A stretch of DNA of 64,000 nucleotides from Salinivirgaceae bacterium (GCA_024405635.1 JAKSOL010000007.1:40755-104754); one strand, 5' to 3'. Positions 3,577 through 51,900 are shown, counted from the first letter of the stretch. Notes: generated by a model from the sequence alone, not told the origin. Translations and numbers: made by a program.

Positions 3577-4947
3577 ATGGATTCTTTGCACGAAGAATGT
3601 GGCGTTTTTGGCATCTTTGGCGTCGAAAATGCAGCCGAAATGGCCTACTATGGACTTCATGCGTTGCAACATCGTGGTCAAGAGGGTTGCGGCATTGTTG
3701 CTGTCGATTCTAACGGACAACTTAAACGCATTAAAGGCGAAGGGCTTGTTCACGAGGTGTTTAACGAGGATAAAATTGCTAATCTGACTGGCAATATGGC
3801 CATTGGCCACGTGCGTTACTCAACCACAGGTGGCGGTGGCATCGAAAATGTGCAGCCGTTTATGTACATACACAGTACAGGCGATTTTGCCTTAGCTCAT
3901 AATGGCAATCTTGTTAACTACAAGCATCTGCGCGAGCAAATGGAAGAGACTGGTAGTTTGTTCCGCTCGTCAAGCGATAGCGAAATTCTAGCTCATCTTA
4001 TTAAGAAAACAACCACAGGCAAAGACCAACCTCGCATCTATGCTCTTATTGATGCTCTTAACGTAATTGAGGGCGCCTTTGCATTCTTAATAATGACCGC
4101 CAACCGCATTTATGCTTGCCGCGACCGCAACGGTTTACGCCCGCTTGCTATTGGCACTTTGCCCAACGGCGGCTATGTTGTTGCTAGCGAAACATGTGCA
4201 TTCGACACCATTGGTGCCACTTTTTTGCGCGATGTTGAACCTGGCGAAATAGTGTCAATCGACAATCACGGTTTGCGAAGCAATTTCTTCACCCAAAACA
4301 CACGTCATGCCATGTGTGCCATGGAGTTCATATACTTTGCTCGCCCCGATAGCGATATTGACGGCTGCAATGTTCACACGTTTCGCAAAGAGTCGGGCCG
4401 ACGTTTGTTTGCCGAGGCTCCTGCCAATGCCGATATGGTGGTTGGTGTGCCCGACAGTAGTTTGAGCGCTGCTATGGGTTACGCCGAGGCTAGCGGTTTG
4501 CCCTACGAAATGGGGTTGATTAAAAACAAATACATTGCCCGAACCTTTATTCAACCATCGCAAGCGTTGCGCGAAAAAGGTGTTCGCATGAAACTCTCGG
4601 CTGTAAAGTCGGTGGTTAACGGAAAAAGGGTAGTGCTAATCGATGATTCAATTGTGCGAGGTACTACATCGTTGCGTATTGTAAACATGCTTCGCGAGGC
4701 TGGTGCTACCGAGGTTCATGTGCGCATTGCTAGCGCACCATTGCGCAAACCTTGTTTCTATGGCGTCGATATAAGTAACGAAGATGAACTTATTAGCGCT
4801 CGCTTTTCGGTTGACGAGGTTTGCAAAAAAATTGGAGCCGACTCGCTCGCTTTTCTTTCAGAAGATGCAATGAAAGCTAGTGCAAACCGCAACGACATGT
4901 GTTTTGCTTGTTTTAACGGAAAATATCCAACCAATGTTAATGGTTAA
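3577..4947 (+). CDS. purF: amidophosphoribosyltransferase
   Basis: 456 aa. It has a CGVFGI N-terminal nucleophile region and the PRPP-binding motif VVLIDDSIVRGTT. Confidence 0.9.
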   Translation: MDSLHEECGVFGIFGVENAAEMAYYGLHALQHRGQEGCGIVAVDSNGQLKRIKGEGLVHEVFNEDKIANLTGNMAIGHVRYSTTGGGGIENVQPFMYIHSTGDFALAHNGNLVNYKHLREQMEETGSLFRSSSDSEILAHLIKKTTTGKDQPRIYALIDALNVIEGAFAFLIMTANRIYACRDRNGLRPLAIGTLPNGGYVVASETCAFDTIGATFLRDVEPGEIVSIDNHGLRSNFFTQNTRHAMCAMEFIYFARPDSDIDGCNVHTFRKESGRRLFAEAPANADMVVGVPDSSLSAAMGYAEASGLPYEMGLIKNKYIARTFIQPSQALREKGVRMKLSAVKSVVNGKRVVLIDDSIVRGTTSLRIVNMLREAGATEVHVRIASAPLRKPCFYGVDISNEDELISARFSVDEVCKKIGADSLAFLSEDAMKASANRNDMCFACFNGKYPTNVNG

Positions 4948-4995: not shown

Positions 4996-6606
<1,611 letters not shown>

Positions 6607-37342: not shown

Positions 37343-38023
37343 TTATTCAGCAACGTTCAAACTTGCTGCTTTTTCAGGCATATCAAGTGTTGTGTAAATG
37401 TTTTGAAGACCTTTAACAACGTTTTTGTTTGTTGGGTCGTACTCGTATGCTTTTTCAAACAAAGGCAAAGCTTCTTGGAATTTAGCATCAGCTTTAGCAT
37501 ATTCTGCTTTAAATTTATCAGGGTCGCTAGTGTTCATGCCACTTTCGTTAGCTGCTTTTTTAATGCTATTTGCTTCGTTGTACAATGGCATAGCTTTCTT
37601 TTGATAGCAACTACCAATAAGTTTTTTCATTGAAGCATCGTCAGGGAATTTGCCCAAACCTGCATTAAGGGTTTCAATTGCACCATCAACATCTTTGGTG
37701 TCCATTTGAATTTTGCCAAGTTGTTGGTACGATTTGTCAACCTTATAATCGGCCTCAATCGATTTGCGGAACAAAGCTATAGCTTCGTCGTTCATTTTTG
37801 CTTTAGCAGCGCAGTAAGCCGCGTTGTAGTTAATGTTTTTGTCAAGTTCTTTGCCATTTTTTTCGTTATCGGCAAGTACTTGAGTGTAAAGTTCGTATGC
37901 TTTTTTGTAGTCTTTGTTGCGATAAGCTTCGTTGCCGCTGTTTGTTGCTTCAACTACATCAAAATCTTGCGCTTGCACTGTCATTGCGAAGGCCAAAAGC
38001 GCCAAGGTGAATAAATTTTTCAT
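37343..38023 (-). CDS. tetratricopeptide-repeat protein (secreted or lipoprotein)
   Basis: 226 aa with a signal peptide and repeated TPR-like A..Y..A....P motifs. Confidence 0.7.
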   Translation of the reverse strand: MKNLFTLALLAFAMTVQAQDFDVVEATNSGNEAYRNKDYKKAYELYTQVLADNEKNGKELDKNINYNAAYCAAKAKMNDEAIALFRKSIEADYKVDKSYQQLGKIQMDTKDVDGAIETLNAGLGKFPDDASMKKLIGSCYQKKAMPLYNEANSIKKAANESGMNTSDPDKFKAEYAKADAKFQEALPLFEKAYEYDPTNKNVVKGLQNIYTTLDMPEKAASLNVAE

Positions 38024-38051
38024 AATACTAATGGTTTTAAAGGTTTATGTT

Positions 38052-38918
38052 TTATCCAAATACAATAGTCTTGTTGTTGTATACCAATATGCGGCGTTGA
38101 ATGTGATAGCGAATGGCTCGCGATAGCACAATTTTTTCAAGGTCTCGACCTTTCAACACTAGCGAGTCAATTGTGTCGCGGTGTGTAATGCGAGTAACAT
38201 CTTGTTCAATTATTGGACCTTCGTCAAGGTCGGTGGTTACGTAATGCGAAGTTGCACCAATAATTTTTACACCGCGTTTAAATGCTGCATGGTATGGTTT
38301 TGCGCCAGTGAATGCTGGCAAAAACGAGTGGTGTATATTGATGATTTTGTTTGGGTAGTGGTTTATAAAATCTTCTGACACTACTTGCATGTAACGAGCT
38401 AAAACAACAAATGATATGTCGTTGTCTTCCAATAATTTAAGCTCTTTTGCTTCTTGTTCTGCTTTATTTTCTTTAGTGATAGGAAAACAATAGTAAGGTA
38501 TGCCAAATTGCTCAACAACTTTACGCATGTCTTCGTGATTGCTTATAACCAATGGAATTTCAACTTCCCATTCTTTTGATTGGTATCGAGCCAAAATATC
38601 GAACAAGCAGTGGTCCATTTTTGATACAAACAACGCCATGCGAGGTTTGTCTTCCGATAGGTATATTTTAAACTCCATATCGTACGATGATGCGATAAGA
38701 GTTTGGAAATAGTCTTGAATCTTGTTTTTAGGAATAATAAATTCGCTTAAATCCCACTGAATGCGCATAAAAAACTGCCCATCTTCGTGGTCAACGTGCT
38801 GGTCAAGCTGAAGTATGTTTCCGTGGTTATTTTGAATAAACTCTGTAACCTTGGCTACAATTCCGCGTTGGTCGCGGCAGTGCATCAATATGGTTGCAGT
38901 GCTAACAGTAGTGTTCAT
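38052..38918 (-). CDS. purU: formyltetrahydrofolate deformylase
   Basis: 288 aa with an N-terminal ACT domain and a formyltransferase core (IINIHHSFLPAF.GA.PY). Confidence 0.85.
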   Translation of the reverse strand: MNTTVSTATILMHCRDQRGIVAKVTEFIQNNHGNILQLDQHVDHEDGQFFMRIQWDLSEFIIPKNKIQDYFQTLIASSYDMEFKIYLSEDKPRMALFVSKMDHCLFDILARYQSKEWEVEIPLVISNHEDMRKVVEQFGIPYYCFPITKENKAEQEAKELKLLEDNDISFVVLARYMQVVSEDFINHYPNKIINIHHSFLPAFTGAKPYHAAFKRGVKIIGATSHYVTTDLDEGPIIEQDVTRITHRDTIDSLVLKGRDLEKIVLSRAIRYHIQRRILVYNNKTIVFG

Positions 38919-39042
38919 TGTATATACTTTTTTTGAAAAACAGTGCCAAATGTATAAAAAACCTTACTTGCACAAAAATAATACGCGGGACTTTTTAGAT
39001 AGCTGAGGATGCTGAGTCAAATAACAAGAACGAAAGTGTTAC

Positions 39043-39077
39043 GTATTATATAATGCTCAATCTAAGACAAGTAAAAC
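39043..39077. repeat. repeat copy 1 (most degenerate, 31/35)
   Basis: GTATTATATAATGCTCAATCTAAGACAAGTAAAAC. Confidence 0.8.
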
Positions 39078-39253
39078 CATATCTACTCTTATCAACGGAA
39101 ATGGACTAAAATGATGTGGAATGTCTACTTTTGTAAAACTAAAACGCAGAAAAACAACGCCGATGTCTACTTCGGTAAATTATTAATTCAATAAAAAATT
39201 TTCTGTGTCTACTTTTTTGAGCTGGTACAAATTTTTTGGTCCAATGTTTTCAT

Positions 39254-39367
39254 TACCGTCATTTTGATATCAATTTTCGAAAAAAGTTACTGTCATTTTG
39301 AGTAGATTTTCCAATATTTTTACCGTCATTTTGAAACTAAATCATAATATTTGTACCGTCATTTTGA
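39254..39367 (+). repeat. four iteron-like copies of TAC(C/T)GTCATTTTGA at 33-34 bp spacing
   Basis: Copies start at 39254, 39288, 39321 and 39354. The last ends 19 bp before the ATG of the DUF4143 ATPase gene. Confidence 0.7.
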
Positions 39368-39385
39368 GCTCAATACTTATTTATC

Positions 39386-40732
39386 ATGGCCGAAATATAT
39401 CAAAGAGAGGCATTGCAAAGCCTCAGGGAATGGAAGGAAAAGGCTGAACGCAAACCACTTATATTAAGAGGTCCGCGTCAGGTTGGGAAAACTACACTCG
39501 TGGATATTTTCTCAAAGGATTTTGAATCGTACGTTTACCTAAACCTTGAAATCGAGGAAAACGCAAAACTATTCGATACGAGCAAAAACATAAACGAGCT
39601 AATAACCTCGATATTTTTCATTGGCGGGCAAAAGATCAACAAGACAAGCAGCCTACTTTTCATCGACGAGATACAGAACTCGGCACAGGCTGTTATGATG
39701 CTGAGATATTTCTACGAGCAGGCTCCATGGCTTTATGTAATATCAGCAGGCTCACTATTGGAAAACCTTGAAAAAAGGAATATCTCATTCCCTGTGGGCA
39801 GAGTGGAATATATGGCTTTGCGTCCATTCTCGTTCAAGGAATATGCGTGGGCAAATCTAGGCGAGGATGTCTACAACGCCATCAACTCCGTATCCATACC
39901 AGAGGCTTATCACAGCAAGCTGATAAAGGAATTCAACACATACACATTGATAGGCGGCATGCCAGAAGTGGTATCCAACTTCATAAAATACAAAGATATT
40001 CTGAAACTGAACGAGATATACGACACCCTGCTGACCGCGTATCGTGATGACATAGAGAAATACGCTCCAAGAGAGAGCATAACCAAGGCAATGCGTTACA
40101 TAATGGAACACGGTTTCCCATACGCGTCGCAGGAAATAGTATTGGGAGGCTTTGCAGGATCGGCTTACAAGTCAAGGGAAATCGGAGAGGCATTCTCGCT
40201 GCTATCAAAATCGATGCTAACAGAACTTGTGTATCCATCCACGTCAACCGAGATACCGGCTCCTCCAGATATGAAGCGCAGACCCAAACTAATGTGGCTC
40301 GATACAGGAATAGTAAACTACGCCTCTGGCCTTAGGAAAGAGATACTTGGCGCCAATGATATTCTCGACGTTTACAAAGGTAAGATTGCGGAACACATTG
40401 TAGGCCAGGAAATAATATCGACCGACAGCAGATGCTCTTTCCGAAGAAGCTACTGGGTAAGAAACAAACAAGGCTCTGACGCAGAAATGGATTTCACCTT
40501 ACAGAAAGACAACAAGATGATCCCAATAGAAGTAAAAGCAGGAACCAACGCACACTTAAAATCGCTTCACATCTATATGGAAGAATCAGATCAGAATGTA
40601 GCCATCAGAATTTGGTCGAACCCGATGCAAATAGATGACATAAAAACTCCGAAAGGCAAAACTTTCAAACTGATTAACCTGCCTTTCTACTATGTGAGCA
40701 AGATAAACGAGATTTTGGAAAAGGAGATATAA
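39386..40732 (+). CDS. AAA+ ATPase with DUF4143-type C-terminal domain
   Basis: 448 aa with Walker A GPRQVGKTT and Walker B LLFIDEIQ. Its length and architecture are typical of COG1373-like ATPases. It lies between the two degenerate repeats. Confidence 0.8.
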   Translation: MAEIYQREALQSLREWKEKAERKPLILRGPRQVGKTTLVDIFSKDFESYVYLNLEIEENAKLFDTSKNINELITSIFFIGGQKINKTSSLLFIDEIQNSAQAVMMLRYFYEQAPWLYVISAGSLLENLEKRNISFPVGRVEYMALRPFSFKEYAWANLGEDVYNAINSVSIPEAYHSKLIKEFNTYTLIGGMPEVVSNFIKYKDILKLNEIYDTLLTAYRDDIEKYAPRESITKAMRYIMEHGFPYASQEIVLGGFAGSAYKSREIGEAFSLLSKSMLTELVYPSTSTEIPAPPDMKRRPKLMWLDTGIVNYASGLRKEILGANDILDVYKGKIAEHIVGQEIISTDSRCSFRRSYWVRNKQGSDAEMDFTLQKDNKMIPIEVKAGTNAHLKSLHIYMEESDQNVAIRIWSNPMQIDDIKTPKGKTFKLINLPFYYVSKINEILEKEI

Positions 40733-40951
40733 GAAAAAAATCGGAGTTTTAGCGGAATCTATCTAAAAAGGGCACATTCCGCTAAAACTCCGAAAGGCAA
40801 ATTTTTAATTATTTATCTGATATTGTGAAAATTAGGCTATGTTCTCAGCAAAATGAGGTAGGGCGTTTTTAGGGATTTTAGGGGAAGTTCGAAAAGGTGA
40901 ATAACCTGCCTTTCTGGTATACGAGCAAGATTTATGTATCGTGATACATAA

Positions 40952-40986
40952 GTTTTACATAATGCTCAATCTAAGACAAGTAAAAC
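40952..40986. repeat. repeat copy 2 (33/35, shares the AATCTAAG variant with copy 1)
   Basis: GTTTTACATAATGCTCAATCTAAGACAAGTAAAAC. Confidence 0.95.
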
Positions 40987-41220
40987 ATAAGCCATACCCA
41001 AATCGCCTTCGTCGATTATTATATTTTTCAATTGTTCGCCTGTAATACGACGTGTTTGCAAAGTTTCCCAACCAAACGGCAGTGTGCCGTCGTTGTTGGC
41101 TTGAATGTAGTTCACAGCCTTAACATTAAGATCAGTTCTTGTTTCTGCTTCGATACAGAAGTAAACATTTTCGTCGCCTTTTATACGAAAAAAATGTCGT
41201 TGAATGTCTATTAGTTTCAT
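40966..41220 (-). CDS. hypothetical protein; last codons and stop are supplied by repeat copy 2
   Basis: 84-aa ORF. The C-terminal VLLVLD* is encoded by the reverse complement of the repeat, so the native 3' end is probably missing. Confidence 0.35.
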   Translation of the reverse strand: MKLIDIQRHFFRIKGDENVYFCIEAETRTDLNVKAVNYIQANNDGTLPFGWETLQTRRITGEQLKNIIIDEGDLGMAYVLLVLD

Positions 41221-41440
41221 AATTCTTGTTTTTATGTATTGTTTAGTTAGTTATTTGTTTATTTTTGCATCGAGTTCAGCGTCTTTATCGCTAAACAATG
41301 AATTGGCTTCCAACAGCGAGAGCAATTGTAGCTCTCCCATCGCGGATAGCCAATTTTTAATTTTACGACTATCGTAATACCACACATTGTTAGTAGCAAT
41401 AGATTGCTCTATTTTAGTACATATTTTATTGTCATTTTGA

Positions 41441-41475
41441 GTTTTACATAATGCTCAAACTCAGACAAGTAAAAC
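41441..41475. repeat. repeat copy 3 (consensus)
   Basis: Exact 35-mer. Confidence 0.95.
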
Positions 41476-41531
41476 TAATACAGAACAAGTACAACGAACT
41501 TGTTAACCGCATGCAGGCGGTGGTCTTTTAG
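41476..41531 (+). pseudogene. 3'-terminal fragment (last ~17 codons) of a HicB-like gene
   Basis: Encodes IQNKYNELVNRMQAVVF*, near-identical to the C-terminus of 43913..44308. It starts exactly at the repeat boundary. Confidence 0.8.
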
Positions 41532-41610
41532 GACTTAATCAACATTAAGGCGGTGCTGCATTCACCGCTTTTTTTTTGCTTTTAAAAAAAATTTTGTAAT
41601 TTTGTAGTGC

Positions 41611-41697
41611 TTTATAAGCATCCCTGGACTCGCTCCGAGATTGGGTTTGTGTCGAAAGGCTCATACCACCAAAGCCTAACAGTGTTAGGCTTTTTTT
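41611..41697 (+). ncRNA. candidate structured small RNA, copy A
   Basis: Upstream lie TTTG (41575-41578), an 18-nt spacer and TAATTTTG (41597-41604), which fit the Bacteroidetes -33/-7 promoter. The body contains a GAAA-tetraloop hairpin. It ends in the terminator AAAGCCTAAC-AGT-GTTAGGCTTTTTTT (41671-41697). A diverged homologous copy lies at 43741-43832 on the minus strand. Confidence 0.45.
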
Positions 41698-41927
41698 GTT
41701 AATGACGAGTTTGTTTTGATGACATTATAGCCGTCGTCAAAGTAATAATATACCTTTATTTTATCTATATGCCACAAATTGTACAATGCGTTGATAGCCT
41801 TATCTGTATCAATACCTCTTTCTAAGCATTGCAACACGATTTCAGCCTTTTGATGATTTATGGCATAACGTGCTTTTTTTTCAATATTACCAGTTCCTTT
41901 GGTTTGTTTCAAATCTGCTGGAATGCC
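41685..41927 (-). pseudogene. 3' half of a gene homologous to 43235..43734, truncated at the repeat
   Basis: The reading frame GIPADLKQTKGTGNIEKKARYA... runs right up to repeat copy 4. It aligns with ...DGIPADLKQTKGTGNIEKYARYA... of the longer copy. Confidence 0.8.
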
Positions 41928-41962
41928 GTTTTACATAATGCTCAAACTCAGACAAGTAAAAC
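41928..41962. repeat. repeat copy 4 (consensus)
   Basis: Exact 35-mer. Confidence 0.95.
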
Positions 41963-42374
41963 TTACAATACCCTTTACAGTGATGTTTTTTATGGTTGCA
42001 CCGCTCGAATACCCGAATAATCCGATACTGCGTGTTTCAGCCGAACTGTCAGCAACATTCATATTCGAAATGGTGTGGTTGTTGCCGTCAAAAACACCTT
42101 TAAACGGATTCCTTGCCTCGCCAATGCTAAACCACGGTTGATTGTTCAGGTCGATGTCCGCAATAAGTTTATAGTGCAAAGTATCAAATCCCTGTGTTCC
42201 GGCACTAACAACATACGACATAAACGCCAGTTCGTTAGCGGTTCCAATAATATATGGCGACTCTTTGCTGCCATCACCTTCTGTGAATTCTTCCATGGCG
42301 CCTTCCCATGCGTCTGCCGCATGAGTGTTAATCACCGCCAACACCATGACGATGCTAATGAATGTAATCTTTCT
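41963..42374 (-). pseudogene. internal fragment of a secreted GLUG-motif-type surface protein gene, truncated at both repeat boundaries
   Basis: The minus-strand frame begins mid-signal-peptide (RKITFISIVMVLAVINTHAADA) directly after a stop contributed by the repeat. It contains PFKGVFDGNNHTISNMNV and IGLFGYSSGATIKNITVKG and ends after about 137 codons inside repeat copy 4. Confidence 0.7.
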
Positions 42375-42409
42375 GTTTTACATAATGCTCAAACTCAGAC
42401 AAGTAAAAC
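42375..42409. repeat. repeat copy 5 (consensus)
   Basis: Exact 35-mer. Confidence 0.95.
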
Positions 42410-42604
42410 TTTTAGATGTTTCAAATCGGAGGGCGAGAATTTGCCCACCTCCGCCTTGTAAGTAACACGTGTTATTTTGCCGTTCTTTACGTAAAAAGAA
42501 ACTTTTACTACATTGCCGTTCTTTACAGCGTGAACGTGAATGGGTTTGTGTTCGCCAGAATAGAACAAAATTTTTATTCCAAGATATTCGTATATTACAG
42601 GCAT
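42395..42604 (-). CDS. DUF4160 family protein, 3' end replaced by repeat sequence
   Basis: MPVIYEYLGIKILFYSGEHKPIHVHA is typical of DUF4160. The terminal VLLV* is encoded by repeat copy 5. Confidence 0.75.
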   Translation of the reverse strand: MPVIYEYLGIKILFYSGEHKPIHVHAVKNGNVVKVSFYVKNGKITRVTYKAEVGKFSPSDLKHLKVLLV

Positions 42605-42676
42605 AAATTAAAACTCCTTATAATGATTATTTGTAATTCCCACGAAAGGCTTACTACTACTAAACGTTGCACAACA

Positions 42677-42943
42677 ATGTGCATTAACAAGATTATTGCC
42701 GATTGTAAAGCATTTAAGATTGGCAAAACTGGCGACCCTCAAAGCAGGGCGGCCAATTATGGCGATTTTGACAAAATGTATCTTTTGGTTCAAAGCAAAA
42801 ATTCGCTTCTGATTGATAGGCTTGAAGGCTACTATACCCAAAAGTATTACGGCCATAAAAAAAATATGAATATAAACAGAGGTTCTGCGGCTGTTATGGC
42901 TTCTTCTCATAGGACTTACTATTTATATATTGTTGTCAAATAG
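42677..42943 (+). CDS. hypothetical protein (88 aa)
   Basis: The start is taken at ATG 42677 (MCINKIIADCKAFKIGKTGDPQSR...). The upstream part of track ORF 42416..42943 is antisense to the DUF4160 gene. No family was recognised with confidence. Confidence 0.35.
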   Translation: MCINKIIADCKAFKIGKTGDPQSRAANYGDFDKMYLLVQSKNSLLIDRLEGYYTQKYYGHKKNMNINRGSAAVMASSHRTYYLYIVVK

Positions 42944-43192
42944 GCCATTATACATACTTAACGGATTTATGTCTGCTCCGTTGTCCCAAGTAACAATGCC
43001 GTCAACTACGCCAACTTTGGCAAATAATTCTTTGTCGATTAAGGCCTTAAAAACTGGGAAATAGCCTTTTTGTATGTTGTTTTTTAGATAGCATATTTTT
43101 TCTGTGCCATCATAAAATTGCACTTGTAAGGCATATTCGTCTATGTTATATACTTTAACCGACTTCACATCAAAAAAGGCTTTTTCCTTCAT
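42923..43192 (-). CDS. DUF2442 family protein
   Basis: 89 aa. The segment ...YALQVQFYDGTEKICYL...VDGIVTWDNGADINPLSMY is typical of DUF2442. The start codon lies only 7 nt from repeat copy 6. Confidence 0.8.
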   Translation of the reverse strand: MKEKAFFDVKSVKVYNIDEYALQVQFYDGTEKICYLKNNIQKGYFPVFKALIDKELFAKVGVVDGIVTWDNGADINPLSMYNGLFDNNI

Positions 43193-43199
43193 TGTTTTG

Positions 43200-43234
43200 G
43201 TTTTACATAATGCTCAAACTCAGACAAGTAAAAC
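43200..43234. repeat. repeat copy 6 (consensus)
   Basis: Exact 35-mer. Confidence 0.95.
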
Positions 43235-43734
43235 ACGATATTAGCAATATTAGTGAGTTGGCTGAAAATCGTGCAGAGTTCATGGCGTATGCGACAAATC
43301 CTGATTATACATCTACGTTCGACACTGGCAGCGGTGGTTTCTTGGCTAAACATAACTCACGAATACCTAACGACTCAACGTCAAAGAACGATATAGAGAA
43401 GTATGAGAAAGAAATAAGAATGTGCGATGTATTCGTAAAGGCTGGGCACAAGATTGTTTACAAAGAAGATGTCCAAGGGGAGTATGATGTGTTATTTGAC
43501 GGAATTCCAGCAGATTTGAAACAAACCAAAGGAACTGGTAATATCGAGAAATACGCAAGGTACGCCGTGAAGAGTCAGAAAGCAAAAATGGTGCTTTTTT
43601 GTTTGGAAAAGGACATAAATAGAAACAAAGCGGAGGAGGCACTAAGAGCGTTGTATATAGTAGATAAAATCAAAGTGTTGTATTATTATGAGGACAATAC
43701 GAATGTTGTTTTGTCTAATAAATCACTTCTATAA
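43235..43734 (+). CDS. hypothetical protein with possible PD-(D/E)xK-like motif (polymorphic-toxin / polyvalent-protein style)
   Basis: The frame is open from repeat copy 6, and the first internal ATG is at 43282 (MAYATNPDY...). The motif EYDVLFDGIPADLKQTKG suggests a D...D-x-K nuclease. The family assignment is tentative. Confidence 0.4.
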
Positions 43735-43740
43735 AATAGA

Positions 43741-43832
43741 AAAGCCCAACAATAACATTGTCAGGCTTTTAGTGGTACGAGTCTTTCGACACGTACCCTA
43801 TCTCGGGGCTAACCCAGGGACTGCCATTTAAG
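43741..43832 (-). ncRNA. candidate structured small RNA, copy B
   Basis: The reverse strand carries TTTG (43865-43868), an 18-nt spacer and TAATTTTG (43839-43846), the same promoter geometry as copy A. It has a 10-bp stem with a GAAA loop and a terminator hairpin (43741-43770) shared with the convergent gene. Confidence 0.45.
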
Positions 43833-43912
43833 ACACTACAAAATTACAAAATTTTTTATAAAAGCAAAAGAAAAAGCGGTGAATGCAGCACCGCCTTAAT
43901 GTTGATTAAGTC

Positions 43913-44308
43913 CTAAAAGACCACCGCCTGCATGCGGTTTACAAGTTCGTTGTACTTGTTCTGTATTATTGCTTTCTGCTTGTCCGATACTGGTACAAGT
44001 TTACGTTTGTATTTGCGCATCATTGCTGCGTTTAGACCTATTTCCTTGGCGAATGCTGTGGCGTTGATAAATGGAAATTGCTCAAAGAACCCAGATATGT
44101 CGTACACGTATTCTACTGCGATATTGTCACTATACCAATCTGGGTATTTCCCTGTTTGTTCCATGTGGTATTTGGCTTGCTCAACCATAACTTCCTCGAA
44201 GCATGTTTTAGCCTCTTGTTCTGTCATGCCACTGCCGTACACGCCTTGCGCATCGTTGGTGTAAATAGCAAAACCTCCGTCTGCGCCCCTCTCAATAACT
44301 GCTTTCAT
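43913..44308 (-). CDS. HicB-like antitoxin family protein (no hicA partner present)
   Basis: 131 aa. The N-terminus MKAVIERGADGGFAIYTNDAQGVYGSGMTEQEAKTCFEE is typical of the HicB/UPF0150 fold, and the C-terminal region is HTH-like. Confidence 0.6.
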   Translation of the reverse strand: MKAVIERGADGGFAIYTNDAQGVYGSGMTEQEAKTCFEEVMVEQAKYHMEQTGKYPDWYSDNIAVEYVYDISGFFEQFPFINATAFAKEIGLNAAMMRKYKRKLVPVSDKQKAIIQNKYNELVNRMQAVVF

Positions 44309-44393
44309 GTTCGTTTAGTTTTATCATTGTTCTTTAAAAAAAAAGTTGAACTGCCCCCCACTAAGGGGAGCAGCGTTCTACTTTAGTCCTGCG

Positions 44394-44428
44394 GTTTTAC
44401 ATAATGCTCAAACTCAGACAAGTAAAAC
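44394..44428. repeat. repeat copy 7 (consensus)
   Basis: Exact 35-mer. Confidence 0.95.
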
Positions 44429-45293
44429 GGCTAACGCTTTTTCAAAGGCAATTACCGAGCGCGAAGTCCGCAAAACCGACAAGTATGCTGCCGAGATTAA
44501 CGCCATTAAAGGCAAGTTGCTCGACTTTATCAACAAAGGCGCTGAAATTAAAGATTCGCACTTTGACAAATACAACGATATTGCTAACAAACAAGTGTTG
44601 CACCCATTTGTAAAAATTGTGCGTGCTTACATTAAGATTAACGGCAAAGAAAACGTTAAAAAGCAAGCCAACACCATTTGCACCAACATTGCAAATCTTT
44701 GCAAAGTATTGCCAGCCGATTTTGAATTTATGGCACAACTTAAAGCAATTGAAAAAAGCTTAAACAACTACATTGAGGGCAAAACAGCAACGCCTAAAAT
44801 GTTGCAAACCGAATTAAGCGGTTTAGGTCGCATTGCCGATAACGACGAAGATGCAAGCACTGCATATTTAGTTACTCTATCAAGAAAAGAAGTGTACGAA
44901 GATGGTTACAGAGATAGTGAAACATTGCTAAAATCTAACGACTACAATGCCGCTATTGCATTTTTTAATGACAAGAAAAAGCAATTGCAAAATATGGCAG
45001 AAGATGATGTTTGCGATTATGATTTAACTATGTGGGTAGGCGACTATGAGGATATTGTAGAAGAAGAATTTGCAGATTTTATAGGAGAACCAACCGATGG
45101 TTATGCGGTTTTAATTAAAGACAGCCATGGTTACTTAATAGAAAATGGCGATGGAAAAACCGAAAGGGATTTTGTGCTCGAAGATTGTAAGGTAAAATTA
45201 GTTAAGAAAGACGAATTAACAGACGAAATACAAATTAGTTTTGGATTTCCAAAACGATGGGTAAAATTAGGTTTAATACCTTCAAGATTATAA
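44429..45293 (+). pseudogene. 5'-truncated ORF of unknown function (mobile-element-like)
   Basis: The frame is open from repeat copy 7 for 100 codons before the first ATG. Track ORF 44346..45293 reads through the repeat (VLHNAQTQTSKT). It shares a YI-x-x-x-TATP motif with the N-terminal part of 45929..46789. Confidence 0.55.
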
Positions 45294-45309
45294 GATATAA
45301 CTAACAACA

Positions 45310-45340
45310 AAAAAGCCGCGCTTAAAGGCGTGGCTTTTTT
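45310..45340 (+). terminator. rho-independent terminator
   Basis: AAAAAGCCGCGC-TTAAA-GGCGTGGCTTTTTT. Confidence 0.7.
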
Positions 45341-45426
45341 ACTTTGACAAGGCAAAGTACCTTGATGGCGCAGGGGCGTTAATCAATATTTCAGCCTAAC
45401 GACAACGTCCGAAACGTATTCCCTGA

Positions 45427-45948
45427 TTGTCCGATGCAAGTATAAGGAAAAAATATATACACAAACAAGATATGCGAGAAAAAATAATAGAATATATCAA
45501 AAAGGCGTGGAACGGCGAAAAATGCAGCAGATTGCTGGATATAACCAGTGCAATTGACATACAAGCACTGGAAGTTGCAAATAGTATAATTGATAAATTA
45601 AACGAAATACAAGATAGAGAAAAATACGACCACATTAAAAAAGTTAAAATATATGCAGTCGATTTTGATCACACAAAAGAAAGACATTTTGGTGCAAATG
45701 AAACAAGGACAGACCAAATACCTTTAACATTTGATGATATACCTTTGTTAGTCGATACTTTATTGTCGCCGCAATTGGTAAGATTAGGAACATTACGCCA
45801 AGATACAGGAGCAGGAATACACTTTATTAGCCAGTTGGATAATGGTAAAATGATTTGCGTACTAATAAAAGTTAAGCCGCAAAAAGAAACTTATAAAAAT
45901 AGAACAATATATAAAAAGAAATTAAAAGATGGAAGCAAGAATAGTTGA
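45427..45948 (+). CDS. PBECR-like (Barnase/EndoU/ColicinE5-RelE-like) nuclease domain protein
   Basis: The motif DFDHTKERHFGANETRTDQIPLTFDDIPLLVDTLLSP resembles the H-x3-RH ... pit-x-eDi pattern of polyvalent-protein nuclease domains. The likely start is ATG 45472. Confidence 0.45.
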   Translation: MSDASIRKKYIHKQDMREKIIEYIKKAWNGEKCSRLLDITSAIDIQALEVANSIIDKLNEIQDREKYDHIKKVKIYAVDFDHTKERHFGANETRTDQIPLTFDDIPLLVDTLLSPQLVRLGTLRQDTGAGIHFISQLDNGKMICVLIKVKPQKETYKNRTIYKKKLKDGSKNS

Positions 45949-46789
45949 TTTTTATATGGTAGAAAACACCAATAAGGACAAACGCCTACGCTTAATGAAA
46001 ATGAAAGCGCTTGCACTGGCTGAACCGCTTGACGGTTTAGCCACAACCAAGTGTGCTAACAATCAACCTGCCGATATTGTTAATCGATATTTGGATTTAC
46101 TCGATAAGCCAACACGCGCCGCCGCAATGGGCGTTTTGTCGTCGGTTGAGCGCTTTATTGAGCAAGCCGATAATAATTACCCTTATATGGCTGAATTTGC
46201 GGCTATGGCTGTAAGTTTGAGCGATTATATTAACGAAGAAACGGCAACACCACAAATTGCAGCCATCGACCTTAATAACATTCATAAAATATCAGGCGTT
46301 AATGTTGATAATAGCGAATTAAAAGGCATTGTAAGTAGTAAAACGCTGCTTGCTCATCAGTTTGAGCCGCTGAACTTTGGTGGTAAGTGGAAACTGTTAT
46401 TTGGTCGCCCAACCGCGCCTTTTAAGGTAATGGTACACGGAGCGCCCGGAAATGGCAAATCAACTTTTGCTATACAATTCGCTAAATACCTTGCCAGCAG
46501 CCACAAGTTGCGTGTATTGTATATTGCTAATGAAGAGAGTTTTACATACACCTTTCAGGAGAAACTTATGCGCCTGAACGCAATAGACGACAACCTGAAA
46601 ATAGCCGATTCGCTACCTGATAACTTTGACGATTATGATGTAGCGTTTTTCGATTCAGTAAACACAATGAAACTCGATATTGACGATTTACGACGAATAT
46701 TCAAACAAAACGACAAAACTTCGTTTGTGTTGATTTTTCAAAACAACAAGAAAGGTCAATTTAGGGGTTCGCTTGAGTGTTTTACATAA
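45929..46789 (+). CDS. RecA-like/AAA ATPase (phage or plasmid type), 3' end cut by repeat
   Basis: Walker A is HGAPGNGKST and Walker B-like is YDVAFFDS. The ORF ends ...GSLECFT* with the last codons and the stop inside repeat copy 8. Confidence 0.55.
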   Translation: MEARIVDFYMVENTNKDKRLRLMKMKALALAEPLDGLATTKCANNQPADIVNRYLDLLDKPTRAAAMGVLSSVERFIEQADNNYPYMAEFAAMAVSLSDYINEETATPQIAAIDLNNIHKISGVNVDNSELKGIVSSKTLLAHQFEPLNFGGKWKLLFGRPTAPFKVMVHGAPGNGKSTFAIQFAKYLASSHKLRVLYIANEESFTYTFQEKLMRLNAIDDNLKIADSLPDNFDDYDVAFFDSVNTMKLDIDDLRRIFKQNDKTSFVLIFQNNKKGQFRGSLECFT

Positions 46790-46813
46790 TGCTCAAACTC
46801 AGACAAGTAAAAC
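46779..46813. repeat. repeat copy 8 (consensus, cas2-proximal)
   Basis: Exact 35-mer, 50 bp from the cas2 stop codon. Confidence 0.95.
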
Positions 46814-46863
46814 AGACTATTGGCTAATTTATTGAATAAGAGTATACTATCATTGGTTTGCTG

Positions 46864-47184
46864 TTAAAAAAAATCAATCAAATCGGGCTTTTTTAGCAAA
46901 ATCTCGTCATTTTTTCGTTTCTGTTTTCGTCCAAAATAATGGTAAGAAGCTTCGTTGTGTTTGTCATCTACCACTACTACACTTATTTGGCATTTGCCGC
47001 AAATAGCTTCCATTATTCGCTTTTTATGAACTAATGCGTTGGCCATAGAGTAACAATACCGTATATATAGATTGGAGTATAACTTATTGAATCCGTCCTT
47101 CTCTAGTTGACGCGAAAAATTCTTTTTACATTCCTTGCCTGTTGATGTGCGGTTGGAAATGTTCATAAAAACGTAAATCCACAT
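46864..47184 (-). CDS. cas2: CRISPR-associated endoribonuclease Cas2 (type II-like)
   Basis: 106 aa. MWIYVF.N...........F...L.KDGF......LY.RYC aligns with my recollection of type II-C Cas2. It lies immediately downstream of cas1 (3-nt gap). Confidence 0.8.
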   Translation of the reverse strand: MWIYVFMNISNRTSTGKECKKNFSRQLEKDGFNKLYSNLYIRYCYSMANALVHKKRIMEAICGKCQISVVVVDDKHNEASYHYFGRKQKRKNDEILLKKPDLIDFF

Positions 47185-47187
47185 AAC

Positions 47188-48045
47188 TTAAAACAATGAA
47201 GGGTAATATATTACACGTCGCTCACCTAAGTAAATCTGCGATAGCGAATAAGTTGTTTGTGACACATCGTCGGGTTTTATTGACTCGTAGAATAGCTCCA
47301 AAATGGCTTTTTTGAAGTTGTGGTCAATGCATCTTTGGCCGATGGTGTATAGTTCAAGCACTTTTTCGTCAACAAATGGTCGATATGGTTCCATAACATC
47401 GTCGCTCAACGGAAAGGAGTTGTATCGGTTTTTATGAAAAACACCAATCATTGGCAATAAACCTGAATTCATTAGCGCACGCGATACTACCGACCGCAAA
47501 ATGGCATATCCGTAGTTTAGCATATCGTTGGGACAATTGCCGTAACGGTCGCGTATAAAATCTTTGCCTAGCAAAAGTTTCCAATATGTTGCGGCTGCCA
47601 AAGCCTCGCGATTTGTTGTGTCGCCACTTTTAACATTCTTATGGTACTTGCTCAACACATCTTCTCCCTTGCCCAATTTTTGTAGCAATAGCGACTGGTT
47701 GTGTATCTTATGTTCTATTATCTGTTTCCAGATTTGTTTTCTAACGGGTTCTGTTGTCGCTAACTGCGCGTTAAAGGTCATTGTTTGCCGTACGTTTGAC
47801 TCTAAGTCTAAAGTCATGCTTACGGGCATGTGGCGCTCGTCGCAAAAAACTATGCTTATGTTGTTTTGAGACAACTTGTTAAGCAGTGGCACAGTGATGC
47901 GTACCGAATGGTTATCGACTAAAATACCCGACACGTCCTCTAACGAACGCATGATTGGGTCTTTATCTTCTTGACAAATTAAAAGCTGCCCATCTTTCAA
48001 CGATAGATCGGCTTTGTTTTCAAATACAAGTGTTTGTTTTGGCAT
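47188..48045 (-). CDS. cas1: CRISPR-associated endonuclease Cas1 (type II subtype)
   Basis: 285 aa, collinear with type II Cas1: IVFCDERHMP, NREALAAATYW, LNYGYAILRS, GVFHKNRYNSFPLSDDVMEPYRPFVD. The catalytic E, H and D/E positions are retained. Confidence 0.9.
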   Translation of the reverse strand: MPKQTLVFENKADLSLKDGQLLICQEDKDPIMRSLEDVSGILVDNHSVRITVPLLNKLSQNNISIVFCDERHMPVSMTLDLESNVRQTMTFNAQLATTEPVRKQIWKQIIEHKIHNQSLLLQKLGKGEDVLSKYHKNVKSGDTTNREALAAATYWKLLLGKDFIRDRYGNCPNDMLNYGYAILRSVVSRALMNSGLLPMIGVFHKNRYNSFPLSDDVMEPYRPFVDEKVLELYTIGQRCIDHNFKKAILELFYESIKPDDVSQTTYSLSQIYLGERRVIYYPSLF

Positions 48046-48167
48046 AATTGTTTTCTAAATGGTTTCTACTAAAGAATGAAAATAACAATGGGTGTGTAGG
48101 TTTGGTTGTACACAACCATATTTTTATTAACCTTGCAGTCTAAAATTTTGGTGGAGATATATCCACT

Positions 48168-48198
48168 AGAGTGCTTGGTAACCTCTTAAAAAACAAGG
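48168..48198 (+). promoter_or_regulatory. preQ1-I riboswitch candidate
   Basis: AGAGUGCUUGGUAACCUCUUAAAAAACAAGG. P1 pairs AGAG with CUCU. The loop CUUG (48174-48177) can pair with the tail CAAG (48194-48197) to form the pseudoknot. There is an A-rich tail, and the ATG at 48201 follows. The pattern parallels the Bacillus and Thermoanaerobacter preQ1-I aptamers, and the downstream genes are yhhQ-queC-queF. Confidence 0.7.
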
Positions 48199-48200
48199 AT

Positions 48201-48890
48201 ATGGTAAAAAAACAACCAACAGTGAGTGTGCTGTTTATGCTTTTCAGTGTACTCTTTTGTGTTTGCTTAATAGCTGCAAACATTTTCGAAACAAAGCAAG
48301 TGGCATTTTTCAGTCACAGCCAAACTGCAGGTGTAATTGTGTTTCCAATTTCGTACATCATAAACGATTGTGTGTGCGAGGTTTGGGGGTACAAAAAAAC
48401 ACGTTTACTCATTTGGCTTGGATTCTTAATGAATTTCTTTTTTGTAGCAGTTGGTGCTTTGTGCGATGCGCTTCCTCCTGCCGAGTATTGGGACAATCAA
48501 GCTGGTTTTCATGCAATTTTTGGACTTGCACCACGCATTGCAGCCGCGTCGTTTGTGGCTTTTGTTTGTGGCTCGTTTATCAATGCTTATGTAATGTCGC
48601 GAATGAAACTTCGCGATGGCGAGAATCGTTTTTCGCTTCGAGCTATCTTAAGTACAATTTTTGGCGAAAGTGTTGACTCTATTATATTTTTCCCATTGGC
48701 TTTGGGCGGCATTGTACCTTGGTCCGAAATGCCATGGCTAATGCTTTTTCAAGTTGGGTTAAAAACTGTGTACGAAATAATTGCTTTGCCAATCACTATT
48801 CGTGTAGTTCGTGCAGTTAAGCGAGCTGAAGGAACCGATGTTTACGATGAAGGTATTTCGTATAGCATTTGGAAATTGTTCGATTTGTAG
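48201..48890 (+). CDS. yhhQ: queuosine precursor transporter (YhhQ/VUT family)
   Basis: Polytopic membrane protein with the VFPISYIINDCVCEVWGY motif. The start is moved from the track GTG at 48171 to ATG 48201, because 48171-48198 is the riboswitch. Confidence 0.8.
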   Translation: MVKKQPTVSVLFMLFSVLFCVCLIAANIFETKQVAFFSHSQTAGVIVFPISYIINDCVCEVWGYKKTRLLIWLGFLMNFFFVAVGALCDALPPAEYWDNQAGFHAIFGLAPRIAAASFVAFVCGSFINAYVMSRMKLRDGENRFSLRAILSTIFGESVDSIIFFPLALGGIVPWSEMPWLMLFQVGLKTVYEIIALPITIRVVRAVKRAEGTDVYDEGISYSIWKLFDL

Positions 48891-48924
48891 GTGCGAGTAA
48901 ATTTTTAACCTAAAACCAAAAAAC

Positions 48925-49578
48925 ATGGATAGTGCATTAGTGGTTTTTAGTGGTGGACAAGATTCTACCACGTGCTTGTTTTGGGCAAAACAAAAGTTTA
49001 ATAGGGTTGTGGCCTTGTCGTTTACCTACGGACAAAAGCATGCAAAAGAAGTAGAGCAAGCAGAAATTATTGCTCGCGAGGCTGGTATAGAATGGCAATG
49101 TATTGATGCTAGTTTTATTTCAAATTTAGCATCTAACTCGTTAACCAACAGTACGATGCAAATGGATACTGAAAAACCCGCAGGTTCGCCTCCAAATACG
49201 TTTGTGCCTGGGCGGAATTTGTTCTTTTTGAGCATTGCAGCGGTAGTTGCTCGTGAACATGGCATAAAAAATATTGTTACAGGGGTTTCGCAAACCGATT
49301 TCAGTGGTTATCCCGATTGCCGCGACGAGTTTATTAAAAGTCTTAATCAAACCATAAATCTAGCAATGGATTACCAGTTTACTATACACACACCGCTAAT
49401 GTGGATTGATAAATGTCAAACTTGGGAAATGGCAGATAAGTTGGGCGTTTTTAATATTATTCGTACGCAAACAATAACTTGCTACAATGGAGTTATTGGC
49501 GATGGTTGTGGCAATTGTCCTGCTTGTAAATTACGTAAAATAGGATTGGATAAATATTTAAAAATCAGAAAAATATGA
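48925..49578 (+). CDS. queC: 7-cyano-7-deazaguanine synthase
   Basis: [15 protein letters not shown]-loop and a C-terminal Cys cluster, CYNG...[10 protein letters not shown]. Confidence 0.95.
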
Positions 49579-50030
49579 AAAGAGAAGATGAAGGCTTGCA
49601 ACAACTTGGACGCAAAACCGAATACCGACAAGATTACGCTCCAGAGGTGCTTGAAACATTTATGAACAAACACCCCGAAAACGATTATTGGGTGCGGTTT
49701 AATTGTCCAGAATTCACATCGTTATGTCCAATTACCGGTCAGCCCGATTTTGCTGAAATTGTGATAAAGTACATACCTGACCAAAAGATGGTTGAGAGCA
49801 AAAGTTTGAAACTATATCTATTTAGTTTCCGTAATCATGGCGATTTTCATGAGGATTGCGTTAATATAATAATGAAAGACCTTATTAAGTTAATGGATCC
49901 AAAATACATTGAAGTTATAGGTCTTTTTACGCCGCGCGGAGGTATAAGTATTTATCCTTATGTAAATTACGGACGTCCGGGTACAAAGTATGCAGAACTG
50001 GCAAGTAAGCGTTTTGCTGAACACGAATAG
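49575..50030 (+). CDS. queF: NADPH-dependent 7-cyano-7-deazaguanine reductase
   Basis: 151 aa with the [11 protein letters not shown] and [18 protein letters not shown] motifs. An ATGA overlap joins it to queC. Confidence 0.95.
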
Positions 50031-50178
50031 CAATAAATATGCATAAGCAACGGTTGCTAACTTGAAAACTTGTTGAAAAATTAAGAGAAAGTACGTAGTC
50101 GTTTGTTCTTGTTCAATGGGTAAAATACATTAGTTTCGCAACACGAATAATAGTGCGCAAGCATTATAAAACAAAAAT

Positions 50179-51900
50179 ATGATGAGTGACCTTTTCGAAG
50201 TCCTTAAATGGCTTTTTGTTTTTGTAGGTGCCTTGGGTGTGTTCCTTTATGGAATGAAACTAATGAGCGAGGCAGTACAAAAACTTGCAGGCGATGGAAT
50301 GCGTGGTATTTTGTCGCGAATGACCTCAAAACCATTCAATGGTATTCTAACTGGATTGGTAGTTACAACAGCAACCCAATCGTCGTCGGCAACAACGGTG
50401 ATGGTGGTTAGTTTTGTTAACGCTGGCCTTATTACGTTGGCGGGTGCAATAGGCATCATTATGGGAGCCAATATAGGTTCAACGGTAACATCGTGGATTA
50501 TCTCTATTTTTGGTCTTAAATTTTCACTTTCAGCAATAACACTTCCAATGGTAGCCATTTCGCTACCATTTATTTTTTCGTCAGATGCTAAACGTAAGTC
50601 GTTGGGCGAGTTCCTGATTGGCTTTTCGTTGTTGTTTCTTGGTCTCGATTTTATGACCGACAGTATTCCAGATGTTAGCCAATTTCCTGAAGTACTGAAA
50701 ATTATTGCAAGTTGGTCAAGTCACGGATATTTGTCAATTATATTATTTGCGCTGATTGGTGCAGTGTTTACAATGATAGCGCAAGCATCGTCGGCCATTA
50801 TGGCGGTTACTTTGTTTATGTGTAACAAAGGTTGGATTGGCTTTGATATGGCTGTTGCTTTGGTTATGGGACAAAACATTGGTACAACTATCACAGCAAA
50901 TTTGGCTGCAATGGTTGCAAATGTTACAGCTAAGAAAGCCGCTCGCGCACACTTGATTTTTAATTTGGTGGGTGTCATTCTTTGTTTGGTGGTTTTTTAT
51001 CCATTTATGCATCTACTTGACAATATATCAATGAGCGTGCAAGGCATGTCGCCATACAGTGAGCCAAGTGCAATTCCGTTGACATTGTCGCTTTTCCATA
51101 CAATATTCAATGTGGCAAATACTGTGATTTTGGTTGGGTTTATTCCTCAACTTATCAAGTTGGTAAATGTTTTGGTAAAATCAAATAAAGAGGAGGACGA
51201 AGAGTTCCGCTTGAAATTTATTTCTGGCGGTATGATGAGTACAGCCGAATTGTCGATAGTTGAGACGTTTAAAGAGATTGGTTTTTTTGCTGAACGGGTT
51301 CAGAAAATGTTTGGTTTTGACCAAGAGTTGCTTTATATCGACAACGAAAAAGATCACAACAAGTTGTTGGGTAGAATTGAAAAGTACGAGAAGATTTGTG
51401 ACAACCTAGAGTTGGAGATTGGCAGATACATAAACAAAATATCAGAGGGTAAGTTAAGTGCCGCATCAAAGCAGAAAACCATCTACATTTATCGAGAGGT
51501 GTCGGAGATTGAAAGCATTGGCGATAGTTGCTACAATCTTTCGCGCCACATCAATACAGCATTTTCTGCAAAAGCTCAGTTTACCGATAATCAGCATGCA
51601 AACATAAAGCAAATGTTTAATCTTGTTGATTTTGCATTAAACAACATGGTTACTTTGGTAAAAGACCGAACAAATGCAGAAGCTATAAATAAAGCCTATG
51701 CGCTTGAAAATGAGATAAATGATTTGCGCGCTAAGCTCAAGGCTCAAAATATATCCGATGTGGGCAATCAAGTTTATGATTATCAGCTTGGAGTGTGGTA
51801 TTTGGATATTATCACTGAGTGCGAAAAAATAGGCGATTACATAATAAATGTGATTGAGGCTCGGACTGAAACTAGTAGGAAAACAGTTTCTCAAATATAA
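50179..51900 (+). CDS. Na/Pi cotransporter family protein with PhoU-like C-terminal domain
   Basis: 573 aa with duplicated QSSSAT/QASSA motifs and a helical C-terminal domain. Confidence 0.85.
   Translation: MMSDLFEVLKWLFVFVGALGVFLYGMKLMSEAVQKLAGDGMRGILSRMTSKPFNGILTGLVVTTATQSSSATTVMVVSFVNAGLITLAGAIGIIMGANIGSTVTSWIISIFGLKFSLSAITLPMVAISLPFIFSSDAKRKSLGEFLIGFSLLFLGLDFMTDSIPDVSQFPEVLKIIASWSSHGYLSIILFALIGAVFTMIAQASSAIMAVTLFMCNKGWIGFDMAVALVMGQNIGTTITANLAAMVANVTAKKAARAHLIFNLVGVILCLVVFYPFMHLLDNISMSVQGMSPYSEPSAIPLTLSLFHTIFNVANTVILVGFIPQLIKLVNVLVKSNKEEDEEFRLKFISGGMMSTAELSIVETFKEIGFFAERVQKMFGFDQELLYIDNEKDHNKLLGRIEKYEKICDNLELEIGRYINKISEGKLSAASKQKTIYIYREVSEIESIGDSCYNLSRHINTAFSAKAQFTDNQHANIKQMFNLVDFALNNMVTLVKDRTNAEAINKAYALENEINDLRAKLKAQNISDVGNQVYDYQLGVWYLDIITECEKIGDYIINVIEARTETSRKTVSQI

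Follow-up and report, generated by a model that had tools for sequence, protein, structure and literature searches.

A Cas9-less type II-like CRISPR locus in Bacteroidales that looks like an archive of long DNA fragments

Within a 64,000-nucleotide stretch of the genome of a Salinivirgaceae bacterium (G000:C34:40755-104754, hereafter the window) lies a repeat array adjoined by a cas1-cas2 gene pair, with the general anatomy of a CRISPR locus. The genome, of 2.66 Mb in 36 contigs, is 99.8% complete, encodes substrates of a type IX secretion system (T9SS), and is related to Bacteroidales from metagenomes of the gut and the rumen. The array comprises eight copies of a 35-nt direct repeat between 39043 and 46813 (Table 1), six of which show the perfect sequence GTTTTACATAATGCTCAAACTCAGACAAGTAAAAC, and the repeat has inverted, type II-like termini (GTTTTAC...GTAAAAC). 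The genes cas1 and cas2, a 50-bp leader and the array succeed one another in a single orientation on the minus strand, with the repeats being perfect at the leader side and degenerate at the distal end. While the length of the repeat falls within the 23-50 nt range of CRISPR repeats, the seven segments between the repeats, at 412-2350 bp, are far beyond the short, uniform spacers of ~25-45 nt. A first-pass annotation of this DNA had likened the segments to ordinary spacers at a larger scale, a likeness borne out by the direct adjacency of a type II cas1, cas2 and leader to the last repeat, which is a key fact that the annotation had left unused.

The Cas1 protein matches the type II profile TIGR03639 (cas1_NMENI) with 284.5 bits against a cut-off of 120, as well as PF01867 (E = 1e-30), and its catalytic triad (E147, H204 and E219 in its own numbering) is invariant in the alignment. 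Cas2 shows a weak match to TIGR01573 (E = 0.004), and tblastn recovers the cas2 genes of bona fide cas9-cas1-cas2 loci at 28-31% identity (E 1e-11 to 1e-15). The rest of the genome yielded no second Cas1, no match to the Cas9 profile TIGR01865 and no other, conventional CRISPR array. Further, outside the array and a decayed second copy on another contig (see below), neither strand carries an above-chance match to the repeat that could represent the anti-repeat of a trans-activating CRISPR RNA (tracrRNA); the best candidate spans 16 nt with one mismatch (E >= 0.7), and a very degenerate anti-repeat could escape this search. The locus is flanked by purU (38052-38918) on one side and by a Vut_1/queC/queF cluster (from 48171) on the other, and no recombinase was detected with Pfam and NCBIfam among the open reading frames (ORFs) from 37343 to 51900, which include the interval from purU to the queuosine genes.

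Table 1. Features of the locus, with positions in the window, followed by the related arrays in other lineages
Feature	Position	Strand	Remarks
cas1	47188..48045	minus	type II family, 285 aa, intact; TIGR03639 cas1_NMENI + PF01867
cas2	46864..47184	minus	106 aa; 3 nt downstream of cas1
Leader	46814..46863	minus	AT-rich, 50 bp, from cas2 stop to first repeat; read off the sequence
Repeat 1	46779..46813	minus	leader-proximal, perfect
Spacer 7 (2350 bp)	44429..46778	minus	3' 287 codons of a gene of at least 457 aa, 173-aa ORF, ATPase without ~33 C-terminal aa
Repeat 2	44394..44428	minus	perfect
Spacer 6 (1159 bp)	43235..44393	minus	C-terminal part of phrog_23416-like gene, terminator hairpins, complete hicB-like gene, last 16 nt of hicA
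Repeat 3	43200..43234	minus	perfect
Spacer 5 (790 bp)	42410..43199	minus	complete DUF2442 gene, 100-aa ORF, DUF4160 gene cut at codon 65 or 66
Repeat 4	42375..42409	minus	perfect
Spacer 4 (412 bp)	41963..42374	minus	self-derived copy, codons 2-138 of 757-aa T9SS surface-protein gene
Repeat 5	41928..41962	minus	perfect
Spacer 3 (452 bp)	41476..41927	minus	inverted; homologous (76% identity) to an internal stretch of spacer 6
Repeat 6	41441..41475	minus	perfect
Spacer 2 (454 bp)	40987..41440	minus	first 78 codons of Strawberry-notch-type helicase and upstream DNA
Repeat 7	40952..40986	minus	2 mismatches
Spacer 1 (1874 bp)	39078..40951	minus	complete AAA_14/DUF4143 ATPase gene (39386-40732, plus strand) and duplicated remnant of its 3' end
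Terminal repeat	39043..39077	minus	more degenerate; matches the copy at 40952 at 33/35 positions
G032 array			spacers 572, 233, 598 bp; one cuts a lipoprotein gene at codon 36
L057			Cas1 68% identical to window Cas1; spacer 324 bp
L071			Cas1 61%; one repeat, then >720 bp
L065/L066			Cas1 58%; spacers 437, 2043 bp
L067			Cas1 58%; spacers 184, 672, 147, 616, 574, 456, 417, 319 bp
L073 (= G181)			Cas1 55%; spacers 409, 232, 342 bp
L054			Cas1 54%; spacers 516, 296, 852 bp
L051			Cas1 49%; spacer ~557 bp

For six of the segments, hereafter spacers, longer parent sequences or full-length homologues were found that extend beyond the repeat edges, and none of the full-length homologues is naturally bounded at a junction. 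Four parents (in contigs C14, L059, L061 and L087) continue past the segment edge with neither a repeat nor any similarity to it at that place, which agrees with the earlier view of the segments as arbitrary pieces as opposed to cassettes. Spacer 4, recognized in the first-pass annotation as a piece of a larger gene for a GLUG surface protein, is 100% identical to G000:C14:45931-46342, i.e., nt 4-415 of a gene in the same genome whose product, of the GLUG/Flg_new kind, is secreted and bears a T9SS sorting domain; the identity breaks off precisely where the repeat begins on either side, and the DNA flanking the parental piece is unlike the repeat. All 790 nt of spacer 5 are contained at 99.7% identity in a contig of 2296 nt from another sample (L061), where neither edge carries a repeat. 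Here the DUF4160 protein has 96 aa and covers Pfam positions 1-64 of 65, as against 69 aa and positions 1-47 in the array, so that the suspected truncation by the repeat amounts to 27 aa. The 100-aa ORF of the same spacer had no match in an exact-protein look-up.

The two leader-proximal spacers are cut in a comparable manner. Contig L059 matches positions 44393-43834 of spacer 6 at 99.5%, and places a hicA gene (PF07927) directly upstream of an identical hicB, with the array edge at 44393 falling 16 nt before the hicA stop; the hicB-like gene that had seemed to lack its partner thus possesses one in the parent, where the pair neighbours a weak match to the HK97-gp10 tail family. The phrog_23416 match at the other end of this spacer covers profile positions 270-391 of 459. 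In spacer 7, the frame entering at 44429 without its start matches residues 208-347 of P0129, a protein of 457 aa encoded on L087, to which it is identical from residue 208 on, leaving 207 aa absent. The RecA-like ATPase at the other end of spacer 7, as had been proposed, ends prematurely in the last repeat: its alignment to homologues of 482-485 aa (P0122 and P0123) stops at residue 452, ~33 aa short. One ATPase homologue sits in a phage-like contig (L063) together with holin, lysozyme and PBECR3 genes. A blastn search of the segment against phage records, and a search of IMG/VR with two of its proteins, returned nothing close. The label of a PBECR-like nuclease previously given to the 173-aa ORF of this spacer could not be upheld, since the ORF matches no Pfam or PHROG family and aligns to a PBECR3 protein by BLASTP with E = 0.16 only.

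Among the leader-distal spacers, the ORF at 40966-41220 in spacer 2 (84 aa) was likewise correctly read as cut: 78 of its residues align to residues 1-79, i.e., the N-terminus, of helicases with AAA_34 and Helicase_C_4 domains, which are 607-1609 aa long. Spacer 3 contains, as reported earlier, just the 3' ends of two genes, namely a hicB-like gene and its neighbour. The AAA_14/DUF4143 ATPase gene of spacer 1 is not kept beside the module in other lineages. Taken together, at least nine of the ten edges with known parents or homologues fall inside genes, and the orientation of the fragments relative to the leader is mixed. The content (HicAB, DUF4160/DUF2442, a phage ATPase and a Strawberry-notch-type helicase) identifies the sources as phage-like and mobile-element DNA and, once, the host chromosome; hence, the earlier description of the segments as foreign stands for most of them and fails for spacer 4. 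The flanks of the known protospacer ends (downstream AACACGG, TCGTTGA, AATCAAA and TTGCTTT; upstream TGAAAGA, AGGAGGG and AATTATG) have no common motif that would point to a protospacer-adjacent motif (PAM), although the four or five flanks are too few to settle the matter.

Several further features of these spacers may be recorded in their own right. The last ~60 nt of the ATPase gene in spacer 1 (40643-40704) recur past its stop codon at 40784-40931 with 85-91% identity, as if the 3' end of a second copy had been left behind. Just upstream of the same gene, at 39246-39367, lie four tandem units of ~33 bp, each ending in ACCGTCATTTTGA, and spacer 2 ends in the similar sequence TTGTCATTTTGA. 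Between the 3' end of hicB and the neighbouring gene, spacers 3 and 6 both retain a ~100-nt stretch (41590-41700 and 43735-43850, inverted relative to each other) in which hairpins and terminators are conserved. This stretch might represent a small RNA belonging to the parent element; it has no match in Rfam, nor has any other part of the window at gathering thresholds. Intrinsic-terminator-like hairpins are enriched between 38900 and 48200 (18 versus 7.7 +/- 3.4 in shuffles), and most of those in the array region arrived with the captured fragments. Elsewhere in the genome, beside two tRNA genes, a short decayed remnant at G000:C33:64200-64410 (L011 6217-6408) shows 85-93% identity to portions of spacers 2 and 7, and was probably left by an integrated element akin to those from which these spacers came.

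At least seven further lineages of Bacteroidales (G032/L043, L057, L065-L067, L073, L054 and L051, and probably L071) display the same architecture, i.e., cas1-cas2 without Cas9, a repeat of 34-36 nt that is particular to each lineage, and spacers in the range of 147-2350 bp. The closest, an uncultured Bacteroidetes metagenome-assembled genome of a different species (G032), has a Cas1 94% identical to that of the window and a closely related 35-nt repeat after the leader. In every such locus the position of cas9 is filled by housekeeping genes, which differ from lineage to lineage. A tblastn search with Bacteroidales Cas9 found none in the fetched flanks of 12 loci of this kind, as opposed to all 16 outgroup loci: these 16, whose Cas1 is at most 47% identical to the window protein, have cas9 beside cas1, and each has an ordinary array (for most, with a period of 65-66 bp) or no long spacers. 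Neither spacers nor gene-repeat junctions are common to different lineages, the latter having been a point raised with the earlier proposal. No parents of the G032 and G181 spacers were found in their own genomes, of which G032 is only 78% complete. In G181, further copies of the L073 repeat, 210 and 622 bp apart, lie on another contig (G181:C7:5826-6701) and are probably a second array of giant spacers. An ordinary array with a 47-nt repeat lies 2.3 kb upstream of a clade-member cas1 in G034 (L044), separated from it by a sulfatase gene; it is uninformative as to that locus's own array, as the contig ends just past cas2. Standard CRISPR finders cap spacer length, leaving such arrays unreported, and the family may thus be widely missed in gut and rumen metagenomes.

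Among 27 spacers taken from seven lineages (147-2350 bp, median 454 bp), 40 of the 54 spacer ends adjoin an open frame of at least 40 codons. The same count in shuffled spacers is 18.9 +/- 3.3, with a maximum of 29 in 300 shuffles, and in random chromosomal pieces of equal lengths it is 48.7 +/- 2.0. Hence, the cuts behave as random cuts in gene-dense DNA with small genes, unlike the borders of cassettes.

In a maximum-likelihood tree of Cas1, the 12 Cas9-less and 16 Cas9-linked loci are split by one branch with support of 100/98, the groups being defined by the very feature that is counted and sampled by similarity to one query. The Cas9-less clade is marked by a deletion of 8 aa after about residue 255 (window ~47270-47290, minus strand), where all 16 Cas9-linked Cas1 proteins carry a segment of the form xxRPLxxx with a conserved RPL motif, and one clade member has an unrelated insert at this site. 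The segment is absent in 117 of the 117 informative database clusters that are at least 52% identical to the window Cas1, on account of which the clade must be large; the deletion is a candidate for what determines coupling to Cas9 or the control of length. Comparison with G032 gives a ratio of nonsynonymous to synonymous substitution rates (dN/dS) of 0.07 for cas1 and 0.08 for cas2, and in deeper pairs dS is saturated with dN at 0.16-0.37, values which indicate that the Cas1 clade is under purifying selection.

Closely related loci further reveal turnover of the arrays. L065/L066 and L067 have 100% identical Cas1 proteins, a common leader and common upstream genes; the spacers nearest the leader are wholly different, with the first 147 nt of the third spacer being common to both (L065 13810-13956, L067 2725-2871), which repeated capture of one DNA end could also explain. 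The starts of two L067 spacers (4164-4206 and 5465-5507) lie 7 nt from each other in one source DNA, and this coincidence suggests capture from preferred DNA ends. The repeats show a gradient of decay away from the leader in four lineages. In the genome of the window itself, a second copy at G000:C8:646-805 (L007 646-805) consists of one repeat with one mismatch, the leader and ~80 nt of the 3' end of cas2, 84% identical to the window copy over 161 nt; it looks like the decayed remnant of a second locus, has complete GNAT acetyltransferase genes on the array side, and lies 645 nt from the contig start.

This structural and comparative framework makes it probable that the locus is a Cas9-less descendant of a type II system which is confined to adaptation and inserts long, arbitrarily cut DNA. 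The locus anatomy, the exact junctions, the parent DNA beyond them, the turnover of arrays between strains, and the clade, residues and selection of Cas1 were all observed directly, and Cas1-Cas2 would be the enzyme responsible. It would join the two 3' ends of a linear fragment to both borders of the 35-nt repeat next to the leader, after which the repeat would be duplicated by gap repair, as in ordinary spacer acquisition. The fragments, which come from phages and further mobile elements and, on occasion, from the host's own chromosome, would not be trimmed to ~30 bp; instead, pieces of 0.15-2.4 kb would be inserted as they are, irrespective of gene boundaries and orientation. Cuts that are blind to genes and the lack of a visible PAM fit the absence of Cas9, and in a locus without effector a self-derived spacer is harmless.

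A number of points weigh against this interpretation. Integration of DNA by this particular Cas1-Cas2 is inferred, and the structurally characterised Cas1-Cas2 complexes measure prespacers of ~30 bp, on account of which the insertion of kilobase pieces would need a looped-out or two-complex mode that is more casposase-like; to our knowledge, the integration of such pieces is without precedent outside the casposases. Acquisition in type II-A systems requires Cas9. A weak PAM may still be present, given how few protospacer flanks were available, and the groups in the Cas1 tree are subject to the limits of definition and sampling given above. Cas1 is broken in G032/L055 (a TAG codon and a frame break) and in L057 (a C-terminal frameshift), that is, in two lineages with giant spacers; therefore, arrays can outlive the enzyme, and some of the loci are in decay. 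Within the array, the leader strand carries intrinsic terminators that were captured with the fragments, which, together with the mixed orientation of the fragments, make one simple long guide transcript unlikely.

What such an array might do for its host is a separate question. One possibility, which we put forward tentatively, is that it constitutes a memory of invaders that operates without a Cas effector, via long sense or antisense transcripts or via expressed fragments. Purifying selection across a deep Cas9-less clade, as read from the substitution rates, argues for some function. The bolder form of this proposal, that the Cas1-Cas2 clade with its at least 117 clusters is a length-unrestricted DNA-capture integrase whose kilobase archives of invader DNA protect the host without a Cas effector, is doubtful at present; protection of this kind would act through long antisense or double-stranded RNA and host RNases, or through expressed antitoxins or truncated phage proteins.

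The same capture chemistry could also operate with no present function, the Cas1-Cas2 pair being a leftover from the loss of Cas9 that now and then inserts untrimmed DNA, and the array a slowly decaying neutral scar. To this account belong the inactivated Cas1 of G032/L055 and L057, a lineage (L068) which retains cas1-cas2 with the repeat absent, the tolerated self-derived spacer, the lack of an effector, the terminators inside the array and the decayed solitary leader-repeat on C8. However, a single well-supported branch sets the Cas9-less loci apart, they have in common a deletion that is carried by at least 117 clusters, and their ORFs and catalytic residues are intact over 49-100% identity, with the low dN/dS noted above. 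A neutral gene would not be expected to remain open across such divergence, and we consider this alternative possible but unlikely.

Integron-like or other site-specific recombination, with the 35-nt repeats as sites and the segments as mobile cassettes, would account for unrelated segments being separated by one repeat with inverted termini and for the complete small genes in some of them (hicB, DUF2442 and the AAA_14 ATPase). It is very improbable, as no tyrosine or serine recombinase is present in or beside the locus in any lineage, the repeat has 35 nt as against the 57-141-nt attC hairpin, and the edges cut genes, are repeat-free in the parent DNA and share no junction between lineages. 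An equally slight chance attaches to homologous recombination between the array repeats and repeats carried by phages or plasmids: virus-borne mini-arrays do exist, and spacers 3 and 6 derive from related elements, but none of the four parents carries the repeat, or anything resembling it, at the edge or close by, the only copy of the repeat in the genome outside the array is the one in the leader remnant on C8, and the source of spacer 4 is an ordinary chromosomal gene. Artefacts of assembly or binning with chimeric joins at the short repeat, as might be feared in a draft metagenome-derived genome with an exact duplicate of segment 4 that short reads resolve poorly, are scarcely credible in view of the chromosomal depth of all segments in the source run (~25x, with segment 4 at 51 as expected for two copies), the contigs from another study's run that span the junction of segment 1 with its repeat, the repeat-leader-cas2 junction and both edges of segment 5, and the recurrence of the architecture in independent assemblies by other groups with other assemblers. 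A run from another study (X3) covers the flanks, cas1-cas2 and segments 1 and 5 and leaves segments 6 and 7 almost uncovered; a recent gain at the leader end would fit this pattern, which rests on missing contig cover with no contig shown to join across the gap, and the pattern was not counted as evidence. Among the sequencing runs, no RNA run is listed as containing this stretch.

Spacer length is among the most constant features of CRISPR because the Cas1-Cas2 ruler sets it. Fragments 5-80 times longer, if indeed acquired in this way, would mean that the ruler can be bypassed, which bears on the origin of CRISPR adaptation from casposon-like integration of long DNA and raises the question of what selects for an effector-less archive of long invader fragments. 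The enzyme would then be a candidate for site-specific, sequence-independent insertion of long DNA, with uses in molecular recording and genome writing. Were the archive also protective, it would represent a new kind of heritable memory in prokaryotes along with a natural enzyme that writes long DNA into a defined site. Literature searches, which largely left out subscription journals and also covered Cas9-less type II modules and Cas1-linked cassettes, brought up no account of arrays whose spacers run to hundreds or thousands of bp. The locus thus looks like an undescribed offshoot of CRISPR that archives long DNA fragments, with a real possibility of its being a memory system of a functionally new type.

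Among known systems, the eukaryotic PIWI-interacting RNA (piRNA) clusters offer an analogy only, in that long pieces of invader DNA are stored in a single locus, some in one orientation and some in the other; their machinery is unrelated, and the likeness is drawn here from the sequence of the locus alone. Integrons similarly have an integrase gene beside a growing array of unrelated segments with one kind of repeat; however, they employ a tyrosine recombinase, attC hairpins and cassettes of whole ORFs, as opposed to the lack of IntI, the short repeat and the edge-cut genes seen here. With casposons the locus has in common a Cas1-fold integrase, the insertion of kilobase DNA and the duplication of the target. 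A casposon is a defined element that is bounded by terminal inverted repeats and encodes PolB, and the casposase forms a distinct branch of Cas1, whereas the present inserts share no ends, stack at one site, and are accompanied by a type II Cas1 with Cas2 and by no PolB gene. Stand-alone adaptation modules, in which cas1-cas2 may or may not be accompanied by an array and effector genes are absent, are known (Koonin and Makarova 2019, PMC6452270) and likewise represent adaptation without an effector module; long spacers go unmentioned in the parts of that account drawn on here, and the present locus is set apart by its own Cas1 clade and by arrays of kilobase inserts. The closest comparison is provided by the type II-C adaptation module of Bacteroidota, with repeats of 36-47 nt, which shares with this locus the TIGR03639 Cas1, Cas2 and a leader beside cas2, a repeat with GTTTT...AAAAC termini (35 nt here), a degenerate distal repeat, strain-specific content, and inserts from phages and mobile elements. 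Unlike that module, the locus described here has no Cas9, no tracrRNA-like anti-repeat and no visible PAM, carries spacers of 147-2350 bp in place of ~30 bp, tolerates a self-derived spacer, and encodes a Cas1 that is without the xxRPLxxx segment of its Cas9-linked relatives. By their defining features, neither a type II system (Cas9, tracrRNA) nor a CRISPR array (short, uniform spacers) is represented here, and the same holds for integrons and casposons. In its workings the locus resembles CRISPR adaptation, and it descends from type II.

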